A DNA stretch of 64,000 nucleotides. Source: Calditrichia bacterium. Its GTDB lineage: Bacteria > Calditrichota > Calditrichia > RBG-13-44-9 > J075. The notes under the pieces are model-generated. The model worked only from the letters and a program-made list of their open reading frames with translations. It made no database searches and was not told where the DNA came from. The position numbers and the translations under genes are program-made. The DNA is taken from positions 3,086,187 through 3,150,186 of the forward strand of contig OZ245730.1 of the NCBI GenBank assembly GCA_965227145.1, given 5' to 3'. Position 1 is the first letter of the stretch; every line of letters begins with the position of its first letter. Of the stretch, positions 2,934 to 62,159 are shown piece after piece.

Positions 2934-3893
2934 ATGAAAGAAGTTGCCTTTCTAAAACTGAATGCCGAAAAATGGAAAAAGCTGGAAGGGTTACTGAACA
3001 ATTCCGAACCGGTGGACGCAGATATTTACGCCGGTTTATTTCTGGAAATTACTGACGATCTCTCATTTGCCCGCACCCATTTTCCCGGCAGCAAAACAAC
3101 GCAATACCTCAACGGTTTGGCCGGAAAACTGCATCAGGAAATTTATCGCAATAAACGAACCGACAAAAACCGCATCATCAATTTTTGGAAAACCGAACTT
3201 CCGACACTTTACGCCAACCATCGCAAATCCTTGCTTTACAGCTTTCTGATTTTTGCAATTGCGGTGATGATCGGCACCCTTTCCACGCTGAATGACAATA
3301 CTTTTGTCCGGCTGATTTTGGGTGACGGCTATGTGAACATGACCGAACACAACATCGAAAAAGGCGATCCGCTGGCTGTTTACAAAGATGCCCGGCAACT
3401 GCAAATGTTTTTTGGAATTACTTTGAACAATATCCGGGTGTCTTTTCTCTGTTTTAGTGCAGGCATTTTACTATCGGTCGGAACCGCTTTTATGCTGTTT
3501 TTTAACGGCGTGATGTTGGGAACTTTCCACACTTTTTTTTATCTGAATTCGTTGTTGGGCGAGTCGTTACTGGTTATTTATATTCACGGTGCGCTGGAAA
3601 TTTCGGCAATCATCATCGCCGGTAGCGCCGGATTGGTGTTAGGCAACAGCATTTTGTTTCCCGGCTCATTTACCCGACGGGAATCGCTGCAACGCGGCGC
3701 GAAAGACGGTTTGAAAATCGCCATCGGGCTGGTGCCGGTTTTCATTGTTGCCGGATTTCTGGAATCATTTGTGACCCGGTACACCGAAATGCCGGTTGCT
3801 TTGAGCCTGCTGATTATTTTGGGCTCGCTCGCATTTATCGGATTTTATTTTATCGCATATCCTGCTTATCTGAACCAAAAGGCAAAAAAATGA
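2934..3893 (+). CDS. Integral membrane protein, SpoIIM-like (stage II sporulation protein M / DUF95 family)
   Basis: 319-aa ORF with several hydrophobic helices and a YIHGALEISAIIIAG segment; first gene of the conserved MoxR-containing cluster. Confidence 0.5.
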   Translation: MKEVAFLKLNAEKWKKLEGLLNNSEPVDADIYAGLFLEITDDLSFARTHFPGSKTTQYLNGLAGKLHQEIYRNKRTDKNRIINFWKTELPTLYANHRKSLLYSFLIFAIAVMIGTLSTLNDNTFVRLILGDGYVNMTEHNIEKGDPLAVYKDARQLQMFFGITLNNIRVSFLCFSAGILLSVGTAFMLFFNGVMLGTFHTFFYLNSLLGESLLVIYIHGALEISAIIIAGSAGLVLGNSILFPGSFTRRESLQRGAKDGLKIAIGLVPVFIVAGFLESFVTRYTEMPVALSLLIILGSLAFIGFYFIAYPAYLNQKAKK

Positions 3894-4798
3894 ACATGAC
3901 TGAACAAATTGATTTTCGCCAAACCCGCGATTTCAGTCAGGTACTGACCGAAACATTCAACTTTGTCCGCCAGAATATCAAAATTCTGGGGACACATTTG
4001 GTTATCGTAATGGGATTTCCGGCAGTTTTGGTAGGTTTTCTCACCGAATACTGGACGCCGAATGCAACCGATTTTCAAACATCCGGATTCGATTTTCTCG
4101 ATTATTATGCGGCACTGCTGCCGCTTTATTTAATCGCAATGTTGTTGAGCATTTTTTATTCCTGCCTGATTTACGCTTACACAATGTTGTATATCGAACG
4201 CGGATTCGACCAGTTCGAAACGCGCGATGTGTTCAATTATGCCAGCCGCTATTTGCTGAAGGCAACCATTGCATCGCTGCTTTCTTTTGTGTTTTTGATG
4301 GTTGCGGTTGTGATGTTTATCTTGCCGTTTTTTTATATTCTGGTACCACTGTCATTTTTATATATCGTTATTTTTAATGAAGATAAAGGTATTTTTGAAT
4401 CCATTTCCCGCTGTTTCGAAGTGGTTTCCGGTAACTGGTGGAACACTTTTGGATTGATCATTTTGCTCGGCGTGATTGTTTACATGCTCACCATTGCGGT
4501 TTCCGTGCCGCAAATTTTGATGGGCGTTTTCATCGAATTCAACGCCGCAAAAAATGAAGATATCGAAATGTATAAACTGATTTCGGCATTTTTGGGCGTT
4601 TTTACCAATTTAGCGGGATACCTCATTTTTCTCATTTTTCATTTTGGGATTATTTTCCAGTATTTCAGTTTGGTGGAACAAAAGGAAGTTCCCGGACTGC
4701 TTCGCCGCATCGATTCCATCGCCCAATCGGAAGAACCCGATGGCGAATCGCCGCCGGCGGCGATAGATTCCAACGCATCACCCGGAGACAAAGAATAG
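3890..4798 (+). CDS. Multi-pass membrane protein, function unknown
   Basis: 302-aa ORF, strongly hydrophobic segments; start overlaps previous stop by 4 nt (operon-like). Confidence 0.6.
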   Translation: MNMTEQIDFRQTRDFSQVLTETFNFVRQNIKILGTHLVIVMGFPAVLVGFLTEYWTPNATDFQTSGFDFLDYYAALLPLYLIAMLLSIFYSCLIYAYTMLYIERGFDQFETRDVFNYASRYLLKATIASLLSFVFLMVAVVMFILPFFYILVPLSFLYIVIFNEDKGIFESISRCFEVVSGNWWNTFGLIILLGVIVYMLTIAVSVPQILMGVFIEFNAAKNEDIEMYKLISAFLGVFTNLAGYLIFLIFHFGIIFQYFSLVEQKEVPGLLRRIDSIAQSEEPDGESPPAAIDSNASPGDKE

Positions 4799-15306: not shown

Positions 15307-15340
15307 CAAAAAGGTCTGCACAATTGTGCAGACCTTTTTT
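15307..15340. terminator. Bidirectional rho-independent terminator between convergent genes
   Basis: AAAAAGGTCTGCACAATTGTGCAGACCTTTTTT: 9-bp perfect stem, 4-nt loop, A-run before and T-run after. Confidence 0.65.
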
Positions 15341-19808: not shown

Positions 19809-20005
19809 GCTGCCATTAAGTTAAGGATCAAAGTGGGCAGTTTTGTCACCCTGAGCTAAGTGTCACCCTGAGCACAGTGTCACCCTGAGCGCAGTCGAAG
19901 GGTCGATGGGTCGATGGGTCGATGGGTCGATGGGTAATTTTGCCGTGCATATATCATGGTTCGACTTCGCTCACCATGACAGGTTGTGCTTAACTTAATG
20001 GCAGC
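19809..20005. repeat. 17-bp perfect inverted repeat pair (GCTGCCATTAAGTTAAG / CTTAACTTAATGGCAGC) bracketing a 163-bp repeat-filled segment
   Basis: Arms at 19809..19825 and 19989..20005, read directly. Confidence 0.8.
19845..19936. repeat. Tandem repeat tract: 3 x 16-bp GTCACCCTGAGCnnnn units then (GGGTCGATG)x4
   Basis: Direct reading; reverse-complement copy with 8 units at 22195..22366. Confidence 0.85.
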
Positions 20006-20012
20006 ATTTCAA

Positions 20013-20066
20013 AGGAGGGGATGTCTGATTTCCCCCTTCGAAGGGGGATTAAGGGGGATGTTATCC
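20013..20066. repeat. Solo copy of the palindromic element family (core CCCCCTTCGAAGGGGG)
   Basis: GGGGATGTCTGATTTCCCCCTTCGAAGGGGGATTAAGGGGGATG; same core as arrays at 50.7 and 51.9-52.35 kb. Confidence 0.8.
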
Positions 20067-20107: not shown

Positions 20108-21037
20108 TTACGGCTGCTGGGCCAGATACCATTGATAGGTTTGGGTAATGCCATCCCGTAAAGAGATACCGGCTTTCCACCCCAAACCATTCAGTTTGGA
20201 GACATCCAGCAGTTTGCGGGGCGTGCCGTCCGGTTTGGATGTGTCAAACGTTAGTTCACCGCTAAAACCAACGATATCCTTAATCAGCAGCGCCAGGTCT
20301 TTTATTGCGATATCCTCACCCACCCCGATATTGACAATCTCGCTATCTGCATAGTGCTGCATCAGATACACACAGGCATCCGCCAGATCATCCGCATGCA
20401 GGAATTCCCGTTTGGGTGAACCAGTCCCCCAGATTTCCACGGACGGTTTTCCGGCAAGTTTGGCTTCATGAAACTTGCGGATCAGCGCCGGCAGGACGTG
20501 GGAACTTTGCAGATCGAAATTATCGTTGGATCCATACAAATTGGTGGGCATCACCGAAATAAATGATGTGCCATACTGGCGATTAAAGGACTGGCAGGTT
20601 TTGATCCCGGCAATCTTGGCGATAGCGTAAGGCTCGTTGGTCGGTTCCAGCTTGCCGTCCAGCAAATGTTCTTCCTTCATCGGTTGCGGGGCGAATTTGG
20701 GATAAATACAGGAGCTACCCAAAAACAGCAGCTTTTTCACCCCGTTCCGGTAGCTGTGATGAATAATATTGGACTGGATCATCAGGTTATCGTAGATAAA
20801 ATCCGCCGGATAATCGTTATTGGCCAAAATGCCGCCCACTTTGGCGGCAGCCAAAAATACGTATTCCGGCTGCTCTTTTTCAAAGAAAGCCGCAACGGCT
20901 GCCTGATTCCGTAGATCAAGTTCTGCGGATCGTTTGAGCACCAGATTGTTAAATCCGTTTGATGCCAACCGCCGTGCTATGGCGGAGCCAACCAGACCGC
21001 GATGTCCGGCTATGTAGATTTTTGATGTTGTTTTCAT
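20108..21037 (-). CDS. fcl: GDP-L-fucose synthase
   Basis: 309 aa; extended-SDR motifs [11 protein letters not shown], YxxxK (YAIAKIAG), and Fcl-typical NLYGSNDNF. Confidence 0.9.
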
Positions 21038-21040
21038 GTT

Positions 21041-21092
21041 GGGTGTATGGGTTAGTGGGTGAATGGGTTGATGGGTTATGGGTTGATGGGGA
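21041..21092. repeat. Simple repeat tract (GGGTnnATG-like nonamers)
   Basis: GGGTGTATGGGTTAGTGGGTGAATGGGTTGATGGGTTATGGGTTGATGGGG. Confidence 0.8.
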
Positions 21093-22107: not shown

Positions 22108-22166
22108 AGCTTTTAGCTTTTGGCTTTTAGCTTTTGGCTTTTGGCTTTTGGCTTTTGGCTTTTGGC
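22108..22166. repeat. (GGCTTT/AGCTTT)n hexamer tract
   Basis: AGCTTTTAGCTTTTGGCTTTTAGCTTTTGGCTTTTGGCTTTTGGCTTTTGGC. Confidence 0.85.
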
Positions 22167-22194
22167 AAGAAAACCCAGGGTTTACCTTCCGCCG

Positions 22195-22366
22195 CTTTGC
22201 CGCTTCGACCCTTCGACCCTTCGACTGCGCTCAGGGTGACACTGCGCTCAGGGTGACACTTGCTCAGGGTGACACTGCGCTCAGGGTGACACTTGCTCAG
22301 GGTGACACTTGCTCAGGGTGACAATCGCTCAGGGTGACACTGCGCTCAGGGTGACACTGCGCTCAG
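22195..22366. repeat. Tandem repeat tract: (CCTTCGAC)x3 then 8 x 16-bp GCTCAGGGTGACAnnn units; inverted copy of 19845..19936
   Basis: Direct reading; reverse complement gives GTCACCCTGAGC units as in the 19.85-kb tract. Confidence 0.85.
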
Positions 22367-22470
22367 GACAAGCCTTTTACTTTTTCCCTTCGGCTTCGCT
22401 CAGGACGAGCCTTTTTACTTTTTACTTTTTCCCTTCGGCTTCGCTCAGGACGAGCCTTTTTACTTATTTC
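22357..22470. repeat. ~48-bp direct repeat x2 (CGCTCAGGACRAGCC-TTTTTACT-TTTTCCCTTCGGCTT) just 3' of gmd
   Basis: Direct reading. Confidence 0.7.
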
Positions 22471-23565: not shown

Positions 23566-23718
23566 TGATGCCTCATGATTTTCTTTTGCCATGAATATTC
23601 ACGAATGGTCACGAATATCTGTAATTTTTGTCTTGAAATCAATGCTTGTATGAATTGACAGATGTCAATCATTGTTTGGGTAAATGGGTGTATGGGTAAA
23701 TGAGTGAATGGGTATAAG

Positions 23719-23940
23719 ACGCACCTCGTTACAGGCTCCTGCCTGGAATGTCTTTATCCGGTGAGGGATGATTTGGATACAATAATGGAACAGCTACGAT
23801 GTTCGACGCACCTCGTTACAGGCTCCTGCCTGGAATGTCTTTATCCGGTTATTTGGATACAATAACGGAACATCTACGATGTTCGACGCACCTCGTTACA
23901 GGCTCCTGCCTGGAATGTCTTTATCCGGTTAGGGAAGCAA
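23719..23940. repeat. ~86-bp tandem direct repeat, about 2.6 copies, upstream of gmd
   Basis: Unit GACGCACCTCGTTACAGGCTCCTGCCTGGAATGTCTTTATCCGGT...TTTGGATACAATAATGGAACAGCTACGATGTTC; partial fourth copy at 24086..24120. Confidence 0.85.
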
Positions 23941-24024: not shown

Positions 24025-24063
24025 CCTCGTAGAGGATTCATCGTGCATTAACCCTCTACGAGG
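24025..24063. repeat. Perfect 11-bp-stem hairpin (CCTCGTAGAGG ... CCTCTACGAGG)
   Basis: Arms 24025..24035 and 24053..24063; 17-nt loop. Confidence 0.7.
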
Positions 24064-24393
24064 GTTGGTCGGTTGGGTGAAATGATTTGGCTACAATAAT
24101 GGAACATCTACGATGTAATCTTGTGTATGGTCAATTGTCAATTGTCGATGGTCGATGGTCAATTCCGAGTTCCCCGCCGCGAAGCGGTTCCTTCGGAAAA
24201 GGAGCATCTTCGGCGTCGAGTTTCGAGTTTCCGATTCCATCTGGAGCAAAACTACCGCAAAAATAAACCAATAACCTATATAATGAAAAAACCCTGCTGC
24301 CGGGTGTACTCCCGGTCGATCAGGGTTATGTTGTTGCTAGTGAAACGTCTTAAACAATAGGGAAATGGAACAACCCAGTATTAATGGATAACT

Positions 24394-51892: not shown

Positions 51893-52350
51893 TTGTCCCC
51901 TGATAGACATCCCTCTGTGTCCCCTTAAGAAACATCCCCCTTTGTCCCCCTTCGAAGGGGGAAAGTTGTTTAGCCCCTCTTTGAAGAGGGGTTGGGGAGA
52001 TGTTTCTTTTGCCTTTTGAAACAGCTTCTTTTTATCACCCTAAGAGACATCCCCCTGTGTCCCCCTTCGAAGGGGGAAAGTTGTTTAGCCCCTCTTTGAA
52101 GAGGGGTTTGGGGAGATGTTTCTTCAGCTTTTTGATACAGCTTCTTTTTATCCTCTAAGAAACATCCCCCTTTGTCCCCCTTCGAAGGGGGAATCTTTTT
52201 AGCCCCTCTTTGAAGAGGGGTTGGGGAGATGTTTCTTTTGCTTTTTGAAACAGCTTCTTTTTATCCTCTAAGAGACATCCCCCTGTGTCCCCCTTCGAAG
52301 GGGGAGTCTTTTTTGCCCCTCTTTGAAGAGGGGTTGGGGAGATGTTTTCT
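51893..52350. repeat. Tandem array of ~113-bp palindrome-containing units (4 units, alternating A/B variants)
   Basis: Each unit: AAGARACATCCCC...CCCCCTTCGAAGGGGG (perfect 16-bp palindrome)...CCCCTCTTTGAAGAGGGG (hairpin)...GGGGAGATGTTTCTT (inverted copy of the unit start). Unit starts near 51929, 52044, 52156, 52270. Confidence 0.9.
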
Positions 52351-57914: not shown

Positions 57915-59579
57915 TCAATTAGCCATATCTGAATCGCGTTTGGCTTTGAAGGCATTGCCGTCGTTCCATTTTGGGAAGGTGTTTTCCCGGCTGAGCTGGT
58001 AGCCAACACGGAACATCAGCCGGATATCGTCGATGGCGCCGCTCAAATCCCAGGTTGCCGGATCGTATTCATCACCCGGTTTGTGATACAGCTCGGCTGT
58101 CCATTTGTTGGAAATCGCCAACACCTCATCCTGCGACTTGCTGACGTGTTCGATCCCCATTTTGGTGTAAAGCGACGGGACGCCTTCTTTGGCAAAACTG
58201 AAGTGATCGGAGCGAAAAAAGATCCCTTTTTCCGGCTCGGGATCGGGGCGAACGTAACGTCCCTGGGCAGTTGCGGCGGTTTCAACATACGCATCGAGTT
58301 GCGAATTGCCTAACCCGATGACGGTGATATCTTTCATTTTTCCAAAAATATTCAGCGCATCCATGTTTAGTGCGGCAACGGTTTTGTTGAGCGGATACAC
58401 CGGATGCGCGGCATAATATGCAGAACCGAGCAGCCCCTGCTCTTCTGCGGTGACCGCCAAAAAGAGGATCGATCGACGCGGCGGTTCCGGCGCATTCACG
58501 AACGCATCAGCCAGTTCCAGCAATGCGGCGGTTCCGGTGGCGTTGTCGCGCGCACCGTTGAAAATATTGTCGCCGTCCATTTCCGGGTTCACCCCAAAAT
58601 GATCCCAATGGGCGCTGTAAATGATAATTTCATCAGCGCGATCGGTTCCCGGCAGCAACGCCAGCACGTTGTTCGATTTGGAGTAGGAAATGTCGTTGGT
58701 CAGCGACAGCGACGCGGTCAGCCCGAACGGTTGGAAAGTGAATCCCGGTTTTGCGGCTTTGGCAATTTCTTCCTCATAATTTAGTCCGGCTTGCCCGAAC
58801 AGCGAGCGCGCCGCGATACCGGATATCCAGCCCTCGAACTGGCAGCGGGACATATTTTTATCCGCCGCTTCCATGTGAAATTCCGGTCCGCTCCAGCCGG
58901 ATTGCACCACAAACCACGGGTAACCAGCCGGCGCCGGTTCGTGAACAATCAGCACTCCGGCCGCGCCCTGCCGCGCGGCTTCTTCGTATTTGTAAGTCCA
59001 GCGACCGTAATAGGTCATCGCACGACCGGTGAACAGCGCGCTGTCCTGCGTCGCGAAACCGGGATCGTTCACCAAAACGACCACAATTTTACCTTTGGCA
59101 TCGAGACCGGCATAATCGTTCCAGTTGTATTCCGGCGCAACGATGCCGTATCCGGCGAACACGATTTCCGCATCGCGAACATCGATTTTATCTACCATCC
59201 GGCGGGTTTGCGCAACAAACTGGCTGCCCAAACCGAGACTCAATCCCCTGCCGGTGCCTTTTATTTCCAGCCGCTCATCCGGATGACTGGTGATTTGCAC
59301 CAACCCGACTTCCTGAAAATAGCTGTCACCATTGCCCGGTTTAAGCCCGATTTTGCGAAATTCATCGCGCAAATAGTTAATGGTTTTGGTCTCGCCTTCC
59401 GTTGCTGGCAATCGCCCCTGAAATTCATCCGAAGCAAGTGTTTTGATGCGTTGGGTGTATTCTGCTTCATCAATCTTAGTGAGCGCTTTTTGCAAATCCT
59501 GCGCAATGGCGAGACTTGCAAACATTGTCAAAAAGAGAACAAATCGTCCGCTGGATGTGATTGAAAAAAATCGCTGCAC
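57915..59579 (-). CDS. M28-family zinc aminopeptidase with signal peptide
   Basis: 554 aa; signal-like N-terminus, M28 motifs HWDHFG, NGARDNATG, TAEEQGLLGS. Confidence 0.85.
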   Translation of the reverse strand: MQRFFSITSSGRFVLFLTMFASLAIAQDLQKALTKIDEAEYTQRIKTLASDEFQGRLPATEGETKTINYLRDEFRKIGLKPGNGDSYFQEVGLVQITSHPDERLEIKGTGRGLSLGLGSQFVAQTRRMVDKIDVRDAEIVFAGYGIVAPEYNWNDYAGLDAKGKIVVVLVNDPGFATQDSALFTGRAMTYYGRWTYKYEEAARQGAAGVLIVHEPAPAGYPWFVVQSGWSGPEFHMEAADKNMSRCQFEGWISGIAARSLFGQAGLNYEEEIAKAAKPGFTFQPFGLTASLSLTNDISYSKSNNVLALLPGTDRADEIIIYSAHWDHFGVNPEMDGDNIFNGARDNATGTAALLELADAFVNAPEPPRRSILFLAVTAEEQGLLGSAYYAAHPVYPLNKTVAALNMDALNIFGKMKDITVIGLGNSQLDAYVETAATAQGRYVRPDPEPEKGIFFRSDHFSFAKEGVPSLYTKMGIEHVSKSQDEVLAISNKWTAELYHKPGDEYDPATWDLSGAIDDIRLMFRVGYQLSRENTFPKWNDGNAFKAKRDSDMAN

Positions 59580-59654
59580 GGTTTTCTCCTGGATTCTGGT
59601 TTCTGGATTTTTTTATTCCGGTGGTTGAGCGGAACCGATACCACCCGCGACCAT

Positions 59655-60125
59655 TCACAATTGGTGAATCTCACGATTTTTGGTGATTATTTTCCACTCG
59701 TTTTCTGTGACGGATTGAACCGACAAACGGCTGCCTTTGCGGAGCAGCACCATTTCCTCGAGTTCGGGAATGTCACGGAGTTCCGGCAAGGTTACCGGTT
59801 CAGCAAATTCGGCTTCGCTGCGAATATCGACCACGCTCCAGCGCGGATCTTCTGTTTTGCTTTTGGGATCAAAATATTTGGATTCGGGGTCAAACTGGGT
59901 GGGATCGGGATATGCTTCGCGAACCACCGTGGCAATCCCGACAATTGCCGGCGGGTTGATCTGACTGTGATAGAAAAATACTTTATCACCAACTTTCATA
60001 TCGCGCATAAAATTGCGGGCCTGATAATTGCGAACACCGTCCCAAAAATCGGTTGAATTCGGCTGGTTTTTGAGATCATCCCATGAATATGCTTCCGGTT
60101 CCGTTTTCATTAACCAGTAGTTCAT
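59655..60125 (-). CDS. EVE (PUA-like) domain protein
   Basis: 156 aa; MNYWLMKTEPEAYSWDDL...GDKVFFYHS pattern typical of EVE/Thy28. Confidence 0.8.
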   Translation of the reverse strand: MNYWLMKTEPEAYSWDDLKNQPNSTDFWDGVRNYQARNFMRDMKVGDKVFFYHSQINPPAIVGIATVVREAYPDPTQFDPESKYFDPKSKTEDPRWSVVDIRSEAEFAEPVTLPELRDIPELEEMVLLRKGSRLSVQSVTENEWKIITKNREIHQL

Positions 60126-60161
60126 TGTTTCCCCTGTCGGTTTAAAATGGCATCACCCGTT

Positions 60162-60332
60162 GAGACAATTCGCTCGTAGTAGAGACAATTCATGAATTGT
60201 CTCTACGGGTGAATTCATGAATTGTCTCTACGGGTGAATTCATGAATTGTCTCTACGGGTGAATTCATGAATTGTCGCTACGGGTGATTTGTCTCTCGGG
60301 TGAATTGTTTATATCATTAAAAATTTTATCAA
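60162..60332. repeat. Tandem array of 25-bp units GGGTGAATTCATGAATTGTCTCTAC (4 full copies plus flanking partials), each with the 12-bp palindrome AATTCATGAATT; first copy forms a 28-bp perfect palindrome
   Basis: 28-bp palindrome GTAGAGACAATTCATGAATTGTCTCTAC at 60179..60206; array fills essentially the whole gap between the HtrA-like stop and the EVE start. Confidence 0.9.
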
Positions 60333-60334
60333 TT

Positions 60335-61960
60335 TCAGGGCACTTCGATAAATACCATCCGGGTGCCGGTACCACCGCGAATTTTCAGCTGGAATTTCAC
60401 AAAATCACCGCTGGATGATTCTCTGGTAATTGTGTTGAATTCTTCCAGAGACTTTACCGGCATGTCGTCGATTTGCAAAATAACATCCAACCGGTAAAAC
60501 CCGGCACGATCAGCCGGACTGTTCGGCACCAGTTTTTCAACAATCAGCCCTTCGGTAATATCATAGCGGGCTTGCTCTTCTTTGGTCAATTCCCGAACGG
60601 TTAAACCGAAATTTTCGAATTCTTTTTCTTCGGGTTCTTTTGTTTCGACCGGAGTTTCTGTTTGCAACTGCTCACTCGCAGGCGCTTCGCCGAGTTCCAC
60701 ATCCACTTCCCATTTTTTACCATCGCGCCATATTACGACAGCTACAACATCGCCGGGACGATTTTGGGCAATTTTAATTTGCAAATCATTTACAGAAACA
60801 ACCTCGCTGCCGTTCACGGCCAACACAATATCGCCCTGCTGCAATCCGGCTTTTTGGGCGGGTGAATTTCCGGTTACGCCCTGAATCAACGCACCGATCG
60901 GCTTTGGCAATCCCACCGCTTTGGCAACGCGATCGCTCACCTGATCGATACTGACACCGAGAATTGCCCGGCGAACGTAGCCATCGTTGATCAGATCCTC
61001 GCTGACTTTTTGGGCAAGGTTGATGGGAATTGAAAATCCGTAGCCCTGATAATATCCGCTGCGCGTAGCGATTGCCGTGTTGATGCCGACAACTTCACCG
61101 GCGAGATTAACCAGCGCACCGCCGCTGTTCCCGGGATTGATCACCGCATCGGTTTGGATGAAATTTTCGATTTTATAGCGATAGCGGCTGCCATCAATAA
61201 TATTAATGTTACGACCCAGCGCGCTGACGATGCCGGCAGTAACCGTGGATGTAAAATTTAGCGGGTTGCCAACAGCCATCACCCATTCGCCGATTTGCAC
61301 ACTGTCCGAATCGCCGATGTATGCCGCCGGCAGGTTTTCCGCCTCAATGCGAATAACCGCGATATCCGTTGTGGGATCGGTACCAACCAGCTTGGCATCA
61401 AATTCGCGTTTATCGTACAGCTTTACCCGCAACTCTTTGGCATCTTCGATCACGTGATTGTTTGTTAAAATATAGCCGTTGGCAGTAATGACAATACCGG
61501 AACCGGAACCGGGCGGGAGAATTTGCTCTTCATCGTTCTCACCGTCGCGTTTTAAAAAGGGATGCAACAGATCGAAAGTGGAGCTGGTTTTGCGAATATT
61601 TTCGATGGAAACTACTGCCGGCAAAATTTTTTGGGCAGCACCCACAAAAATAGAATTGGGGTTTCCGTTAAACGGGATTGCACCGCTGATCACCGGACGT
61701 TCCGTCTGTTCCTGCGGTTCGGTTTTCCGCCATGCAATTGAATCGCGAATATTTTGCCGTGCACCGGGCTGAACCGAAACGCGCGGCTCTACCGCCGACG
61801 GTTGTTTTGCCTCGGGCTCCGGCGTTAAAGGATGGATGCTGCTTTGTTTGGGCAACGGATTGTATCCCGAAGCGCCCGGCACTCTCGAAACCATCCAAAC
61901 GACAATTCCGATTATCAGAACGCCGGTAATCAACACGGCTAATTTTTTTAATTCGTCCAT
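60335..61960 (-). CDS. HtrA/DegP-family serine endopeptidase with PDZ domains
   Basis: 541 aa; N-terminal TM, trypsin-like active-site region GNSGGALVNLAGEVVGINTA, C-terminal PDZ-like segments. Confidence 0.9.
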   Translation of the reverse strand: MDELKKLAVLITGVLIIGIVVWMVSRVPGASGYNPLPKQSSIHPLTPEPEAKQPSAVEPRVSVQPGARQNIRDSIAWRKTEPQEQTERPVISGAIPFNGNPNSIFVGAAQKILPAVVSIENIRKTSSTFDLLHPFLKRDGENDEEQILPPGSGSGIVITANGYILTNNHVIEDAKELRVKLYDKREFDAKLVGTDPTTDIAVIRIEAENLPAAYIGDSDSVQIGEWVMAVGNPLNFTSTVTAGIVSALGRNINIIDGSRYRYKIENFIQTDAVINPGNSGGALVNLAGEVVGINTAIATRSGYYQGYGFSIPINLAQKVSEDLINDGYVRRAILGVSIDQVSDRVAKAVGLPKPIGALIQGVTGNSPAQKAGLQQGDIVLAVNGSEVVSVNDLQIKIAQNRPGDVVAVVIWRDGKKWEVDVELGEAPASEQLQTETPVETKEPEEKEFENFGLTVRELTKEEQARYDITEGLIVEKLVPNSPADRAGFYRLDVILQIDDMPVKSLEEFNTITRESSSGDFVKFQLKIRGGTGTRMVFIEVP

Positions 61961-62159
61961 TTTTTAACATCCCGGGTTTGGGTCTTGTCACTGTGCTTAA
62001 GCTTCAAACATAATTGAAAAGCGAAGCGCAAGCAAAGAAAATTTATTTGGTGATACGTAATTTACCGGCAATTTGTTCACTGCGGATATTCAGCGCTGGC
62101 AATCAGTTATCGGGTGACGACGGTATCGTAAAAAACGGCTTTAACTTGCGCCATGCGGT

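Follow-up and report, generated by a model that had tools for sequence, protein, structure and literature searches.

Tandem duplication of one hairpin arm as the probable source of a 25-bp palindromic repeat array between htrA and an EVE-domain gene in Calditrichia

REPs are short (20 to 40 bp), palindromic, extragenic sequences that share a common consensus and are present in multiple copies (PMC12306157, PMC3733652). In many of them, one end of a short GC-rich stem bears a GTAG (or CGTC) tag that is unpaired, and they are often reiterated in tandem, as set out in the section on Pseudomonas of one of these sources (PMC3733652). The locus described here invites comparison with them. It is an array of palindromic 25-bp repeats that fills most of the spacer between an htrA gene and a gene for a stand-alone EVE domain, and it lies in a stretch of 64,000 nucleotides from a Calditrichia bacterium, which was analyzed as a whole and is called the window below. 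The features of the locus, listed in the direction of transcription, are collected in Table 1.

Table 1. Features of the htrA-EVE spacer and of the two genes that border it
Feature	Coordinates	Strand	Evidence or remark
htrA, DegP/HtrA-type serine protease with two PDZ domains	60335..61960	-	Pfam Trypsin_2 1.4e-34, PDZ_2 1.6e-25
AT-rich segment, 31 nt, htrA stop to first repeat unit	60304..60334	-	sigma-70-like hexamers, consensus match only
Short 16-nt unit, TCACCCGAGAGACAAA on minus strand	60288..60303	-	sequence and alignment A1
Three extra 25-nt copies of upstream hairpin arm, TCACCCGTAG[A/C]GACAATTCATGAAT on minus strand	60213..60287	-	
Retained hairpin	60179..60212	-	original 20-nt upstream arm at 60193-60212; perfect 28-bp palindrome GTAGAGACAATTCATGAATTGTCTCTAC at 60179-60206
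7-nt linker, TACGAGC on minus strand	60172..60178	-	alignment A1
Distal downstream-arm copy, GAATTGTCTCAACGGGTGA on minus strand, one mismatch	60153..60171	-	
27-nt tail TGCCATTTTAAACCGACAGGGGAAACA	60126..60152	-	imperfect U-run after stem, then Shine-Dalgarno-like AGGGGA, EVE ATG
Stand-alone EVE (PUA-like) domain gene, first gene downstream of element	59655..60125	-	Pfam EVE 1.3e-60

Tandem Repeats Finder (TRF) reported a period of 25, with 4.0 copies, 98% matches and a score of 195, at positions 60187-60287. The first-pass annotation of this DNA had described four tandem 25-bp units that carry the 12-bp palindrome AATTCATGAATT, and both TRF and the matching of 25-mers bore this out; the units occupy 60187-60286, and AATTCATGAATT is found in each of them. 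The 25-mer AATTCATGAATTGTCTCTACGGGTG gave four matches, three of them exact and one with a single mismatch, and no match of any kind was obtained in 100 shuffles. The 12-mer occurs four times in the 64 kb, all four within the array. The 28-bp perfect palindrome that had been reported in the first copy is also real, with 14-nt arms that are 100% complementary and without a gap. Partial copies had been mentioned as well, and two are present. The one at 60288-60303 is a degenerate unit of 16 nt, and the one at 60153-60171 is an inverted copy of the unit core, with 1 mismatch in 18, an orientation that had been missed. Of the extra 25-nt copies, that nearest to htrA differs by one substitution from the other two, which are identical. 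Repeat-derived sequence (60153-60303) accounts for 151 of the 209 bases of the intergenic spacer (60126-60334). The array has no coding potential, its 25-nt period not being a multiple of 3 and stops being found in every frame; the sole entry in the ORF list that touches its edge is a meaningless ORF of 48 amino acids.

The repeat-derived block begins 31 nt past the htrA stop codon and ends 27 nt short of the EVE start, in agreement with the earlier placement of the array 5' of the EVE gene. Both genes are on the minus strand, which places the array not only 5' of EVE but also 3' of htrA. The surrounding genes encode HtrA, EVE, an M28 peptidase, PHP, an M23 peptidase/PEGA protein, a TPR protein and DUF8198, and the closest homologs of the EVE protein are annotated Calditrichia. 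No DNA-binding protein, Rep or regulator gene adjoining the array was found among these neighbors, and there was no transposase among the nine window ORFs that were scanned against Pfam.

The spacer was compared among relatives whose nucleotide identities to the window were taken over about 2.4 to 8.5 kb of aligned sequence. The array was seen in two further independent data sets, from strains that are about 98.5% identical to the window (L018 and L019 in one, L001 to L010 in the other), and it is thus not an artifact of one assembly, an explanation that the first-pass annotation had itself raised. L018, an ENA MAG contig (Calditrichia_J042) with 98.4% identity, crosses the array, and L019, a Logan contig with 98.8% identity, starts inside the hairpin. 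The ten Logan contigs L001 to L010 encode an identical HtrA, carry the unit types of the window with a few substitutions, and all 10 end 89 nt past the htrA stop, inside the array; L001, at 98.5% identity, is of the array type and breaks there like the others. The comparison of copy number between strains that had been suggested gave four units in the 209-nt spacer of the window and three in the 184-nt spacer of L018, a difference of exactly one 25-nt unit that rests on one short-read MAG contig, in which a unit may have been collapsed. Short units related to the degenerate one at 60288-60303 are also found in L018, L001 and L041, the L001 version being 17 nt long and the L041 version 16 nt. 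The 7-nt linker and the adjoining copy of the downstream arm together form a 20-nt insertion that splits the ancestral downstream arm (alignment A1, columns 180 to 199); it is present in the window and L018 and absent from L020, L028, L041 and L042.

The more distant alleles are simpler. L041, at 94.5% identity, has the short 16-nt unit and one hairpin with an uncompensated 2x2 internal loop, and its sequence upstream of the AT-rich segment is also different, at a contig end. The sister species (L020, L024, L028 and L042, about 92% identity) has a 98-nt spacer with one perfect 40-bp palindrome, TCACCCGTAGAGACAATTCA followed directly by TGAATTGTCTCTACGGGTGA, which runs from 31 nt after the htrA stop to 27 nt before the EVE ATG. 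The same spacer as in L020 is found in L022, L023, L025 to L027 and L029, and L043 starts inside the palindrome. No 25-nt duplication was found in L041 or in the relatives at about 92%. Further away, L030 (72%) has a 43-nt spacer and L031 (about 71%, partial alignment) one of 9 nt, both without a hairpin, and the gene order htrA-EVE-M28-PHP is kept in L030. The reiteration is thus unconserved, with a single palindrome in the relatives at about 92% and none in L030, L031 and L036. Because the htrA-EVE adjacency is kept in distant relatives that have no hairpin, the gene pair is old and the hairpin a clade-specific gain. The alleles place the gain of the hairpin in one genus-level clade and that of the array within one species, and they form a graded series: the hairpin alone, the hairpin with a 16- or 17-nt extra arm, the same with two further 25-nt units, and the same with three. 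In the more distant Calditrichia L036 to L039, a HigB-HigA toxin-antitoxin pair lies between htrA and EVE (about 3387-3962). This module fills the spacer that holds the hairpin in the clade of the window, and the spacer therefore appears to be a permissive insertion site.

How the units may have arisen can be read from the ancestral-type allele. Two copies of ACAATTCA are found in it at a distance of 17 nt, the first just before the palindrome and the second at the palindrome center, together with two copies of AATT at a distance of 25 nt (AATTCACCC..., AATTGTCTC...). The junctions of the array fall at these short direct repeats, which were already there in the ancestral sequence. Long perfect palindromes are known from the literature on palindrome instability to be prone to slippage, and the first duplications would have been seeded by the microhomologies at such a palindrome. 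Duplication between the two copies of ACAATTCA would give a 17-nt unit, which is intact in L001 (TCACCCGTAGAGACAAA) and one nucleotide shorter, by a deletion, in the window, L018 and L041. The two AATT copies, used in the same way, would give exactly the observed 25-nt unit, ACAATTCATGAATTCACCCGTAGAG. Once two copies existed, their number would drift by replication slippage or unequal exchange, as in three versus four. The window and L018 each show a single substitution of their own in the distal arm. The repeated AATTCATGAATT sites are evidently by-products of duplicating the center and one arm of a single palindrome. The extra arms would offer alternative pairings, yet the closing stem beside the U-rich tail is kept, and they are most likely neutral or mildly modulating by-products.

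Changes in copy number could also be what selection acts on. The locus would then be a contingency (phase-variable) locus, in which gain or loss of 25-nt copies switches or tunes the expression of EVE and the genes downstream. Copy number is indeed 4 against 3 between strains that are about 98.4% identical, and the array is flanked by a possible promoter on one side and by the EVE ribosome-binding site on the other. However, only two copy numbers are resolved, one of them from a short-read MAG, and all predicted folds leave that ribosome-binding site free. The array is neither between a -35 and a -10 element nor in a reading frame, the usual positions of phase-variable repeats, and intergenic tandem repeats abound elsewhere in the window (79 TRF rows), which points to a general tendency to slippage and not to selection at this locus. 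We regard selected phase variation as very improbable.

On balance, and with modest confidence, we favor a joint account in which the array is an intergenic minisatellite, or variable-number tandem repeat (VNTR), that came about within a single Calditrichia species when the upstream arm of one existing 40-bp palindrome was duplicated in tandem, and in which the palindrome itself acts as a hairpin, as discussed below. The proposal that the repeats are an operator or iteron array for a dimeric DNA-binding protein found no support. Relatives do not conserve the reiteration, the neighboring genes include no regulator, and the period of 25 bp amounts to 2.4 helical turns, so that successive sites are not in phase. 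Two other classes were considered and rejected. The units abut without spacers, which excludes a CRISPR array, and a chromosome dimer-resolution (dif-like) site was discarded because the GC skew does not switch at 60 kb and the genes between 24 and 62 kb are all on one strand.

The hairpin, by comparison with the reiteration, is the older and conserved unit. The unit consensus and the arms of the sister species showed 0 differences in 40 positions, against 6 in 58 in the flanks (Fisher p = 0.04), and the palindrome is perfect in 11 sister-species contigs that represent at least three flank haplotypes. The RNA of the window spacer, from the transcribed minus strand, folds with -64.9 kcal/mol (z = -8.9), and the spacer RNAs of L020 and L018 also fold more stably than their shuffles (-33.9 kcal/mol, z = -6.0, and -58.9 kcal/mol, z = -7.5, respectively). 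The ancestral form, in L020, is an 18-bp stem with a 4-nt loop and the tail TGTCATTTTA, and a simple scan classed it as terminator-like. In the predicted fold of the window, the distal arm pairs with the upstream units and closes the whole structure beside the T-rich tail, and the outer stem likewise still closes there in the fold of the second array allele, that of L018. The hairpin is on the coding strand, shortly after a stop codon and within a string of genes on the same strand. The other suggestion of the first-pass annotation, a structured RNA element, is accordingly plausible for the underlying hairpin, to judge from the spacer fold and the terminator-like 18-bp ancestral stem.

Most likely, we infer from the sequences, the hairpin is an intercistronic RNA stem-loop that is terminator-like or protects a 3' end. 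The functional unit would be the hairpin and not its reiteration, acting on the RNA of the htrA-EVE-M28-PHP string, a step that we hold to be less certain than the origin by duplication. It may attenuate or terminate transcription after htrA, or it may keep 3' exonucleases from degrading the htrA message; in both cases htrA levels would be uncoupled from those of the downstream genes. Several observations speak against a stem-loop terminator. The U-tract is imperfect and not adjacent to the stem, and while the sister-species tail, TGTCATTTTA, passes a scan criterion of 5 T in 8, the window tail, TGCCATTTT, fails it; L041 has TGCCATATT. The perfect stem of 18 to 20 bp is longer than is usual for intrinsic terminators. 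The one canonical terminator recognized in the window, at 15308-15339, has a stem of 10 to 11 bp with clean A5/T5 flanks. That element, AAAAAGGTCTGCACAATTGTGCAGACCTTTTT, is a textbook bidirectional intrinsic terminator between convergent genes and provides a local standard for this organism. Covariation that would show selection at the RNA level was not found among the alleles, across which the hairpin arms are identical; the variants comprise the uncompensated 2x2 internal loop of L041, one G-U pair in L018 and one A-A mismatch in the window. A permissive search of 59000-61500 against Rfam families returned only mir-4861 (30 bits, gathering score 100) and sraL (18 bits, gathering score 39), which we dismissed as spurious hairpin matches.

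Also against the RNA reading, promoter-like hexamers abut the palindrome, which fits a role as operator or 5' untranslated region equally well. The AT-rich 31 nt might then be the promoter of EVE-M28-PHP, and the palindrome, at about -6 to +34, either the operator of a dimeric repressor or a 5'-terminal stem-loop that stabilizes the transcript; extra units would add weaker sites or lengthen the leader. In L020, TTGATA-17-TACAAT matches at 10 of 12 positions and ends one base before the palindrome. In the window, TTGATA-17-AACAAT matches at 9 of 12, and its second hexamer ends where the array begins. The hexamers vary at 1 of 12 positions and the spacer between them at 6 of 17, with a constant spacer length, and the palindrome is perfect and more conserved than its flanks. 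In the ancestral layout, moreover, the 28-bp palindrome that is kept in the array alleles would form the very 5' end of such a transcript. However, hexamer matches of this kind come close to the chance frequency in AT-rich DNA (3 matches where 1.6 were expected), the contrast between hexamers and spacer is not significant (Fisher p = 0.11), and the -35 region is replaced in L041. The hexamers were scored as sigma-70-like, but the Calditrichota promoter consensus may differ. The Bacteroidetes-type promoter TAnnTTTG showed no intergenic enrichment in the window and did not occur in the htrA-EVE spacer. The spacers of 9 to 43 nt in distant relatives indicate that EVE is normally cotranscribed with htrA, which counts against a promoter of its own. 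No regulator gene lies in the vicinity, the palindrome core is confined to this one site in the 64 kb, and a perfect palindrome of 40 bp is much larger than a typical dimer operator. A promoter with an operator or leader stem-loop is therefore an unlikely explanation, in our estimate, and the intercistronic stem-loop remains the reading that we prefer for the hairpin.

Upstream of htrA itself (61961-62159, alignment A2), a block is conserved even in L030, at 72% identity, with the form TTGCGnTTnGCTTnTC...ATTATGTTT and a TAnnTTTG-like motif 45 nt before the start. This block may be a stress promoter of htrA.

A REP-like element would account for the position and form of the palindrome in another way. 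An element of a GTAG-headed family could have been inserted between htrA and EVE and then tandemly clustered, possibly after mobilization by a RAYT-type tyrosine transposase encoded elsewhere. An extragenic palindrome of 40 bp, between co-oriented genes and downstream of a coding region, has typical REP properties (PMC12306157, PMC3733652), and tandem reiteration is known for REPs (PMC3733652). GTAG opens the inner palindrome and CTAC closes it, and the element is an insertion, specific to one clade, between two genes that otherwise lie close together. Another long hairpin, at 24025-24063, has the same GTAGAG...CTCTAC stem core and an ATTCAT motif; GTAGAGN{4,34}CTCTAC had two hits in the window, with 0.00 expected. 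Multicopy status, the defining feature of REPs, was nevertheless not seen: even at low stringency there was one locus in the 64 kb, a provisional count. The array, too, was confined to one locus in the window and in the public collections searched, contrary to the concern, voiced in the first-pass annotation, that the repeats might be scattered as a generic REP-like element. The 20-mer of the arm had no match in JGI metagenome contigs. A search of GTDB representative genomes with GAATTGTCNCTACGGGTGA gave seven single matches in unrelated taxa, about the number expected by chance, in a collection from which the source genome and its close relatives are apparently missing, and the one match of the 17-mer in viral contigs had no surrounding palindrome and is a chance match. 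GTAG and CTAC are base-paired within a long AT-rich stem, symmetrically at both ends of the inner 28-bp palindrome, and no transposase is in view within the 64 kb. An inserted REP-like element thus seems to us quite unlikely.

The hairpin at 24025-24063 consists of CCTCGTAGAGG, 17 nt and CCTCTACGAGG, and lies in a repeat-rich spacer; its 19-mer had no match in JGI metagenome contigs. The 7-nt linker of the array (GCTCGTA on the plus strand) resembles the CCTCGTAG head of this hairpin. The two palindromes could conceivably belong to an undescribed Calditrichota REP-like family with GTAG on both strands and arms that amplify in tandem, or else the palindrome might serve one clade as an operator or 5' stem-loop, with expression of EVE-M28-PHP tuned by its copy number; these are doubtful conjectures, and duplication of one arm of a stem-loop is the account that we retain.

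Tandem repeats are found in many other spacers of the window, and the 79 TRF rows indicate a genome unusually rich in them. Arrays of a 17-mer, TGTCACCCTGAGCACAG in 3 copies at 19844-19895 and its reverse complement ACTGCGCTCAGGGTGAC in 8.7 copies at 22224-22367, form an inverted pair (within 19844-19935 and 22109-22470) that flanks an epimerase gene (20108-21037) and about 1 kb of noncoding DNA. Beside them are GTCGATGG in 5 copies, GCTTTTG in 8 copies and a 45-nt repeat in 2 copies. An 80-nt unit is present twice, with 97% identity, at 23771-23931, and a further partial copy follows the 24025 hairpin, at 24085-24117. Repeated 8-mers of the TGGGTGAA type occur at 23677-23713 and 21040-21090. 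At 51926-52347, a 113-nt unit in 3.7 copies (score 707) has the internal GC hairpins CCCCCTTCGAAGGGGG and CCCCTCTTTGAAGAGGGG, and motifs related to CCCCCTTCGAAGGGGG are also found near 20030. Between about 26000 and 48000 lies an island of low GC content (27 to 35%, against 44 to 50% elsewhere) in which all genes are on the minus strand. Just outside it are the sugar-nucleotide genes for a GDP-mannose dehydratase, an epimerase and a DegT aminotransferase, and there are repeat-rich spacers near both of its ends. The island looks like an acquired polysaccharide-biosynthesis locus.

If our account is right, the seemingly designed series of dyad-symmetric binding sites is a recent duplication of one hairpin arm that is polymorphic among strains, and annotation as an iteron or operator array is unwarranted. 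The locus would then be a natural example of a long perfect palindrome that seeds tandem duplications at microhomologies of 4 to 8 nt, and a tidy one, because several intermediate alleles survive in related strains. It could be used to tell strains of this Calditrichia species apart, and the array explains why short-read assemblies break at the htrA-EVE spacer. Should the hairpin indeed be an internal terminator or stabilizer within the old htrA-EVE pair, it would illustrate how expression of a stress protease can be uncoupled from that of the genes downstream.

Among known systems, iteron arrays and tandem operators share with this locus direct units of about 20 to 25 bp with a dyad-symmetric core upstream of a gene, but here the reiteration is unconserved even within the genus, the units are duplication products of one palindrome, and there is no Rep or regulator gene as a neighbor. 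REP, BIME and REPIN elements of the GTAG superfamily (PMC3733652, PMC3337134, PMC12306157) are alike in being extragenic palindromes of 20 to 40 bp with GTAG, located between co-oriented genes, as well as in their tandem clustering and in their proposed roles in termination and mRNA stabilization. The present element differs in that no dispersed copies were seen, GTAG is paired at both ends and no RAYT gene lies in the window; unlike those of a REPIN, moreover, its halves are not themselves hairpins. Intrinsic terminators and intercistronic stabilizing stem-loops resemble the hairpin in several respects: the stem-loop is strong, follows a stop codon at a short distance on the coding strand, has a base rich in GC and leads into a T-rich tail, and it is placed between genes of one transcription unit; the sister-species allele was indeed scored as terminator-like. 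In contrast to intrinsic terminators, the stem here is 18 to 20 bp, perfect and AT-rich in its upper half, and the U-run is interrupted and begins 5 nt after the stem. Bacterial intergenic VNTRs of the kind used for MLVA typing are similar in their head-to-tail units of 10 to 100 bp, nearly identical and set in a noncoding spacer, and in a copy number that differs among close strains (4, 3 and 0 extra full units), for which slipped-strand mispairing is a likely cause. What sets this array apart from the usual VNTR is that its unit can be traced to one arm and the center of a preexisting perfect palindrome, that each unit can pair with the retained downstream arm, and that the seeding microhomologies, AATT and ACAATTCA, can be identified.
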